This document shows positions 3,530-3,887 of a stretch of DNA of 64,000 nucleotides, piece by piece. The notes under the pieces were generated by a model. The model did not search any database. It was not told where the DNA came from and worked only from the letters and a program-made list of their open reading frames with translations. A program made the translations under genes and the position numbers. Where the stretch lies: NCBI RefSeq assembly GCF_003334785.1, contig NZ_QOWV01000005.1. One strand, written 5' to 3'. Position 1 is the stretch's first letter. Every line of letters begins with the position of its first letter. The stretch comes from Escherichia coli. Lineage in GTDB: Bacteria; Pseudomonadota; Gammaproteobacteria; Enterobacterales; Enterobacteriaceae.

Positions 3530-3530
3530 T

Positions 3531-3556
3531 AAAAAGGCGCTGAATGGCGCTTTTTT
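3531..3556. terminator. Hairpin flanked by an A-run and a T-run (bidirectional intrinsic terminator) after amiC
   Basis: AAAAAGGCGCTGAATGGCGCTTTTTT immediately after the amiC stop. Confidence 0.6.
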
Positions 3557-3571
3557 ATGGGAGACCAGAAA

Positions 3572-3596
3572 CAAAAAAACACCCGTTAGGGTGTTC
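3572..3596 (-). terminator. Intrinsic terminator downstream of the tRNA-fMet gene
   Basis: Minus strand reads ACACCC-TAAC-GGGTGT followed by TTTTTTT, just 3' of the tRNA. Confidence 0.6.
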
Positions 3597-3602
3597 AATA
3601 AT

Positions 3603-3679
3603 TGGTTGCGGGGGCCGGATTTGAACCGACGACCTTCGGGTTATGAGCCCGACGAGCTACCAGGCTGCTCCACCCCGCG
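3603..3679 (-). tRNA. metZ: Initiator tRNA-fMet (fMet1 type, anticodon CAU), single copy
   Basis: Reverse complement is CGCGGGGTGGAGCAGCCTGGTAGCTCGTCGGGCTCATAACCCGAAGGTCGTCGGTTCAAATCCGGCCCCCGCAACCA (77 nt) with the initiator hallmarks: C1xA72 mismatch, three G-C pairs in the anticodon stem, CCA end. Confidence 0.95.
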
Positions 3680-3887
3680 TCCGTGGATGCGCACTATACT
3701 CCGCTCGCGTTTTCATGCAACCTTTTTTTTACCCCGATCACGGATTTGGCATGATTTTGAACAAAAACAAATCACTAAAGCCTATTTTTTGTGCAAAATT
3801 TGCGTCAGGGAGAGGCTGCTCATTTCATTAAACGCGGCGGTTTGTTATCTTCGTTGCGCCTTATTTTTTAACCTGAAGAAGAGAACA

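Follow-up and report, generated by a model that had tools for sequence, protein, structure and literature searches.

A metZWV locus with a single initiator tRNA gene in Escherichia coli: contracted tandem array or assembly outcome

The locus between amiC and mltA in the stretch of Escherichia coli DNA analyzed here (the window, 64,000 nucleotides) raises the question of why it holds one initiator tRNA gene where E. coli K-12 carries three, and whether the strain itself has lost the others. The first-pass annotation of the window had described a single 77-nt gene of the fMet1 type (G46) with its own terminator, had set it against a metZ-metW-metV triplet at this place in K-12, and had offered repeat collapse by recombination or an ancestral low-copy state as the cause. 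Run over all 64 kb of the window, ARAGORN reported a single tRNA, tRNA-Met(CAT), on the minus strand at 3603-3679, and an Rfam search of the window returned the same lone tRNA with 61.4 bits. The interval 3530-3887 is exactly the amiC-mltA intergenic region, and the locus is made up of the following features.

2276-3529, plus strand: coding sequence of amiC (N-acetylmuramoyl-L-alanine amidase), the upstream neighbor; a 417-aa open reading frame, annotated amiC in the matching E. coli regions.
3530-3557, both strands: GC hairpin flanked by A/T, between amiC and the tRNA terminator, seen in the fold of the minus-strand RNA (sequence AAAAAGGCGCTGAATGGCGCTTTTTT); probably the amiC terminator.
3567-3596, minus strand: intrinsic terminator of the tRNA unit, with an 8-bp stem (GAACACCC/GGGTGTTT; stem 3596-3577) followed by a T-run.
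3603-3679, minus strand: initiator tRNA-fMet gene, fMet1 type, G46, with an encoded CCA end, assigned by ARAGORN, Rfam and identity to metZ, metW and metV.
3693-3720, minus strand: putative metZ-type promoter, with a -35 hexamer TTGCAT (3720-3715), a 16-nt spacer and a -10 hexamer TATAGT (3698-3693).
3888-4985, plus strand: coding sequence of mltA (murein transglycosylase A), the divergent downstream neighbor; a 365-aa open reading frame, annotated mltA in the matching genomes.

The window gene is identical to K-12 metZ, metW and metV at 77 of 77 nt and differs from K-12 metY by one mismatch at gene position 47 (canonical position 46), G here and A in metY, which is the sole variable column when the window gene, the triplet and metY are aligned together. 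It carries the features of a bacterial initiator tRNA: the CAU anticodon (cat at position 35 in the ARAGORN output), the C1xA72 mismatch (the tRNA begins with C and has A opposite, and the Rfam alignment flags this first pair as non-standard), and three consecutive G-C pairs beside the anticodon loop (TCGGG-CTCATAA-CCCGA). The three G-C pairs have been described as an initiator feature, together with the significance of the other hallmarks and the definition of the isoforms fMet1 and fMet2 (PMC3017606), and G46 places the window gene with metZ, metW and metV in fMet1, K-12 metY having A46. ARAGORN, Rfam, the alignment and the RNA fold all confirmed the first description of the gene, and the triplet ascribed to K-12 was right, as the MG1655 locus holds three genes rather than one.

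The signals on either side of the gene also match K-12. The terminator was found by a consensus scan, has a fold z-score of -4.2, and is identical to the K-12 segment that follows metV. The hairpin immediately after amiC could be read on both strands, and its assignment as the amiC terminator is a functional reading of the sequence. The promoter region is likewise identical to that of K-12, with a GC-rich discriminator, 13 nt between the -10 hexamer and the mature 5' end of the tRNA, and an A-tract upstream at 3730-3723. A simple consensus promoter scan of the tRNA locus returned no promoter, because the -35 hexamer matches the consensus at 3/6 positions only; the two hexamers were assigned by eye and from the literature, and should be taken as candidates. 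Promoter-down mutations of metZWV have been reported at or next to the -10 box; one primer of the published metZWV knockout has a homology arm that matches 3715-3680, and the arms of the knockout primers match the unit at both of its edges (PMC3017606). The locus occupies the mltA-amiC interval and keeps the promoter and terminator of K-12, and holds one gene and no spacer sequence in place of three genes with 33-nt spacers; it is the metZWV position in a contracted allele rather than the canonical triplet.

The extent of the difference was defined by comparison with MG1655, in which metZ, metW and metV are 77-nt genes separated by 33-nt spacers, giving a period of 110 bp. BLAST of the window against MG1655 gave two alignments that overlap in the window and are offset by 220 bp in K-12 coordinates; exactly two 110-bp repeat units are therefore absent from the window. 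The overlap defines the junction as follows.

3599-3681, no strand assigned: deletion-junction interval, the 83 bases common to both MG1655 alignments.

The junction may fall anywhere in this interval and is therefore scar-free, and a search of window 3300-4100 for leftover repeats found no partial tRNA or spacer. Window 1-8424 has zero mismatches to MG1655, so the flanks of the locus are 100% identical, and the 220-bp loss is the only difference from MG1655 at this locus. Over the first 60 kb the window has 11 SNPs relative to MG1655. Its source is a phylogroup-A strain related to K-12 rather than K-12 itself, because these 11 SNPs are followed by a divergent block and the homology to K-12 ends at 63,754.

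These comparisons bear on the idea that the window comes from a laboratory strain deliberately built with fewer initiator-tRNA genes. K-12 strains with altered initiator-tRNA gene number have indeed been constructed (PMC3017606, PMC8248024), but the published constructs put a kanamycin cassette in place of the locus (PMC3017606), whereas here the junction lies inside the native tRNA with no cassette or recombinase scar, and the background is not K-12. We consider engineering vanishingly improbable.

Further features of the window were recorded in the same comparison. Seventy of the 81 differences from MG1655 (SNPs and one single-base indel) fall in 60,328-63,697 on the cysI/cysH side, within the divergent block at 60.3-63.75 kb. 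The end of the K-12 homology lies inside or just past a sok-like antitoxin RNA (Rfam RF01794, 63610-63767), which corresponds to sokX, next to cas3, in K-12. The boundary at 60.3-64 kb looks like one left by recombination or replacement, lying at the edge of the CRISPR-Cas region. The small RNAs of the window are those expected for a K-12-like region, with nothing unusual: ES036/CssrF just 3' of mltA (5107-5149, plus strand), GcvB (8165-8370, minus strand) and CsrB (26551-26910, plus strand).

To place the single-copy arrangement among E. coli genomes, array size was counted in 5426 complete RefSeq genomes, with E-value thresholds reachable only by a single alignment over the full length. A strict single copy, defined as one full-length alignment to 40 nt of flank, the 77-nt tRNA and 40 nt of flank, was present in 109/5426 genomes (2.0%). 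At least one tRNA-spacer-tRNA junction, meaning two or more tandem copies, was present in 5195/5426 (95.7%), and three or more tandem copies in at least 5000/5426 (at least ~92%). The counts by coverage, 213 and 226, mix one-copy and two-copy genomes because overlapping alignment pieces were joined; the 226 are those in which a plain amiC-mltA context holds one or two copies, hence ~117 with two. Genomes with exactly two copies number between 117 and 195, since the figure for three or more may be a lower bound. Three copies are the strong mode, at ~91% of genomes. Four or more tandem copies were found in 67 genomes, including strain HS, O55:H7 DEC5A and XL10-Gold, and some of these give two overlapping matches, implying five or more. 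The array thus varies from one to at least four copies in public genomes, with both contraction and expansion represented.

The single-copy genomes are scattered over unrelated lineages, among them K-12, O104:H4, O157:H7 Xuzhou21 and many others. The K-12 family alone covers every size from one to four: J53, ME8067, MC1061, OV2, C3026 and MG1655p are recorded with one copy, C600, DH5a and MT102 with two, MG1655 with three and XL10-Gold with four (the commensal HS also has at least four). In the single-copy records the tRNA sequence occurs at only two places per genome; the second is presumably metY, which would bring the total to two initiator-tRNA genes. The single-copy state is already on record, either as a minor allele that recurs or as a recurrent assembly outcome, and the rarity implied by the first-pass annotation was overstated, the same arrangement being present in the 109 genomes counted above.

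A different class of locus was encountered among the 231 genomes without a tandem junction, 122 of which are not plain single-copy; two of these were inspected. In AVS0536 (NZ_CP124324.1, locus stretch 1-6088), a type VI secretion cluster (tssB, tssC, tssK, tssL and an OmpA-family gene) abuts a lone tRNA-fMet beside mltA, and amiC is not adjacent to the tRNA. In the E. coli ST648 genome NZ_CP008697.1 (stretch 435-6207) there is no tRNA-fMet between amiC and mltA and a ~5-kb island lies there instead, encoding a PRD-domain regulator, a PTS EIIC component, a frameshifted MalY/PatB, a KpsF/GutQ isomerase and a phosphoglycerate dehydrogenase; the match to the window begins right after the tRNA position. 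The ~122 junction-less genomes of this class may include island cases like AVS0536, and metV is named alongside genomic islands in several papers on E. coli.

We then considered whether the lineage of the window might never have had more than one gene here, the K-12 triplet being a later amplification. A single gene is the simplest arrangement, and two-copy relatives exist. Against this, the window is only 11 SNPs per 60 kb from MG1655 with identical locus flanks, and haplotypes closer still carry several copies. NCTC9087 has 0 mismatches over 24,991 bases to window 3590-28589, yet is multi-copy, as shown by an alignment that begins at query base 10; the same holds for dozens of genomes that differ by 1-2 mismatches over this segment. 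The genomes closest to window 44001-64000, which show 2-3 mismatches to it (SHP24, Z217-2, Z217-4, ML35 and others), again belong to this multi-copy set. Multi-copy haplotypes thus lie 0-2 SNPs away per 20-25 kb, and no lineage sharing the single copy by descent was found among these neighbors, which are mostly multi-copy; WP5-S17-ESBL-10 and BR1220 are single-copy and differ from the window by 1-2 SNPs per 25 kb.

The outgroups point the same way. A pattern scan for tandem tRNA-fMet junctions across Enterobacterales, with one genome per species, yielded 64 loci, of which 54 have mltA beside the array; amiC was also within the retrieved stretch in 36 of these 54. Among the 26 loci in which genes were counted, three copies were found in other E. 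coli representatives, two Escherichia species, Citrobacter, Klebsiella, Enterobacter, Kluyvera, Leclercia, Serratia and Edwardsiella, and four in Tatumella. Two copies were found in E. albertii, in Salmonella enterica subsp. arizonae and diarizonae, and in E. whittamii, where the retrieved stretch begins 36 nt before the first gene and may leave out a copy. Across Enterobacterales the usual state is a tandem triplet beside mltA and amiC. A separate observation concerns Kluyvera genomosp. 3 (CP022114.1), in which one of the three tandem initiator tRNAs (7601-7676) is 76 nt long and has its anticodon at position 36 rather than 35, so that it has diverged by indels within the array.

Near-identical multi-copy haplotypes, the E. 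coli census (95.7% of genomes with at least two copies, ~92% with at least three) and the outgroup triplets, together with the dispersal of single-copy genomes over unrelated lineages, led us to reject an ancestral low-copy state, which we regard as very improbable. The single-copy state of the window is evidently derived from a three-copy array. Of the two causes offered at first, repeat collapse is supported by the absence of exactly 2 x 110 bp between identical flanks, and ancestral low copy number is contradicted by the haplotypes and outgroups.

The best explanation in our view, to which we would give about an even chance, is that the metZWV operon was reduced to one gene by a real contraction in the living strain. 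The ancestor would have carried the three-copy array, from which two 110-bp units were precisely lost, most likely when the first and last tRNA genes, which are identical, paired out of register, whether by unequal sister-strand exchange or by replication slippage between short tandem direct repeats. Such an event would join the metZ promoter side to the metV terminator side with no scar. In E. coli, deletions between short tandem repeats that do not require RecA are well established. Two-copy genomes outnumber or equal one-copy genomes (~117-195 : 109, about 1-2 to 1), a ratio that would be compatible with simple misalignment, in which there are two registers for the loss of one unit and one for the loss of two. 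Real unequal exchange at this array is also supported by the 67 genomes with four or more copies, because assembly collapse does not easily explain expansions.

Copy loss at this locus is also tolerated. Cells that lack all of metZWV are viable but grow more slowly and are cold-sensitive (PMC3017606; PMC11480407; also PMC8248024), and the loss of some copies is reported to be beneficial in poor media (Samhita et al. 2014, summarized in PMC9981150); such alleles can therefore persist.

The competing explanation is that the strain carries the usual three (or two) copies and that an assembler or polisher merged the 110-bp units. The first-pass annotation had raised this caveat, and the census of public genomes makes it a serious one; we put it at a little under an even chance. 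Collapse of three near-identical 110-bp units would yield exactly the scar-free sequence seen, and because a real event gives the same product, the two are not separable from sequence alone. None of the nearest relatives of the window shows an inherited single copy, the closest being multi-copy, which counts against real contraction and in favor of collapse.

Records of the same strain or clone disagree: J53 has one copy in CP028702 and three in J53-p1-pV-hybrid-1 (CP068706), MG1655p has one and MG1655 three, and O104:H4 2011C-3493 and 2009EL-2050 have one where a German O104:H4 isolate has three. Same-submitter pairs share their state (J53 and ME8067; MC1061 and OV2; the two CDC O104:H4 genomes). 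Single-copy records also bunch by submission, with at least ten GF chicken-meat genomes (CP172145-CP172217), at least eight WP-ESBL genomes (AP0219xx-AP0222xx), at least six in CP0672xx-CP0673xx (CP067245-CP067311) and several in the TUM and STK/STS series, these being counts of single-copy records only; the GF series also includes GF50 and GF60. The clustering by series and submitter pair suggests that the assembly pipeline accounts for some of the apparent polymorphism.

Routine collapse, by contrast, is not to be expected, because the two spacers of the array differ by two indels and one substitution (spacer sequence TCACCGTACTGCTTT...) and the array, at 297 bp, fits within most long reads and can be resolved by k-mers above 77. 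At least 5000/5426 assemblies do resolve three or more copies, and the existence of arrays with four or more indicates that real copy-number change occurs here. Since tRNA-fMet counts differ between assemblies of the same strain, array copy number should not be taken from an assembly without a check of the reads.

If the contraction is real, the strain of the window would have two initiator-tRNA genes instead of four, provided that metY is present, which is half the usual dosage. The locus would still be normally transcribed and processed, because its promoter, tRNA gene and terminator are intact and identical to those of K-12, and would be expected to deliver about one third of the usual tRNA-fMet1 output. 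The level of initiator tRNA tracks gene copy number (PMC3017606; PMC11480407; PMC8248024), and a low level allows initiation by non-initiator tRNAs (Kapoor et al. 2011, PMC3017606). Work in K-12 would predict slower initiation and a modest growth cost in rich medium (PMC3017606, PMC8248024 and PMC9981150), more initiation by non-initiator tRNAs through relaxed P-site discrimination or at non-AUG codons, and perhaps a competitive gain when the medium is poor. The earlier remark that the fidelity of initiation and the growth rate depend on initiator-tRNA dosage accords with this literature (PMC3017606; PMC9981150).

A stronger reading, which we think improbable, is that the contraction is both real and non-neutral, the strain of the window being a natural low-dosage, lowered-fidelity variant in a standing polymorphism of initiator-tRNA copy number kept by niche-dependent selection. 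The species would then comprise ~2% of genomes with one copy, 2-4% with two, ~91% with three and ~1% with four or more, with fewer copies favored under nutrient limitation, as competitions between engineered strains have suggested. No new question is opened here; the genes and their locus are established, as are the effects of dosage and the way in which tandem repeats contract. The finding is real but ordinary, an allele, or an assembly outcome, of a textbook tandem tRNA operon.

Among known systems, changes in the number of tandem tRNA or rRNA genes through unequal recombination, such as the tRNA gene duplications of Pseudomonas fluorescens SBW25 (PMC10954465), resemble the window in that tRNA gene dosage changes by repeat-mediated rearrangement with expected effects on fitness; the SBW25 events differ in being large duplications selected in the laboratory, whereas the window shows contraction of a micro-array with a 110-bp period and no evidence of selection. 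K-12 metY (tRNA-fMet2), the fourth initiator gene, upstream of rimP-nusA-infB, is likewise a single-gene unit and is one base off the window tRNA, but it is a different locus, carries A46 instead of G46, and lies outside this window. The public single-copy alleles (WP5-S17-ESBL-10, BR1220, J53 CP028702, MC1061, O104:H4 2011C-3493 and Xuzhou21) have the identical 40+77+40-nt arrangement; none of these genomes is identical to the window over all regions tested, and some of the records conflict with assemblies of the same strain. The K-12 counterpart is the metZWV operon itself, which differs in having three genes rather than one, the window lacking 220 bp made up of both 33-nt spacers and two of the gene copies, and which shares with the window the position between mltA and amiC, the orientation, the promoter region, the tRNA at all 77 positions and the terminator.
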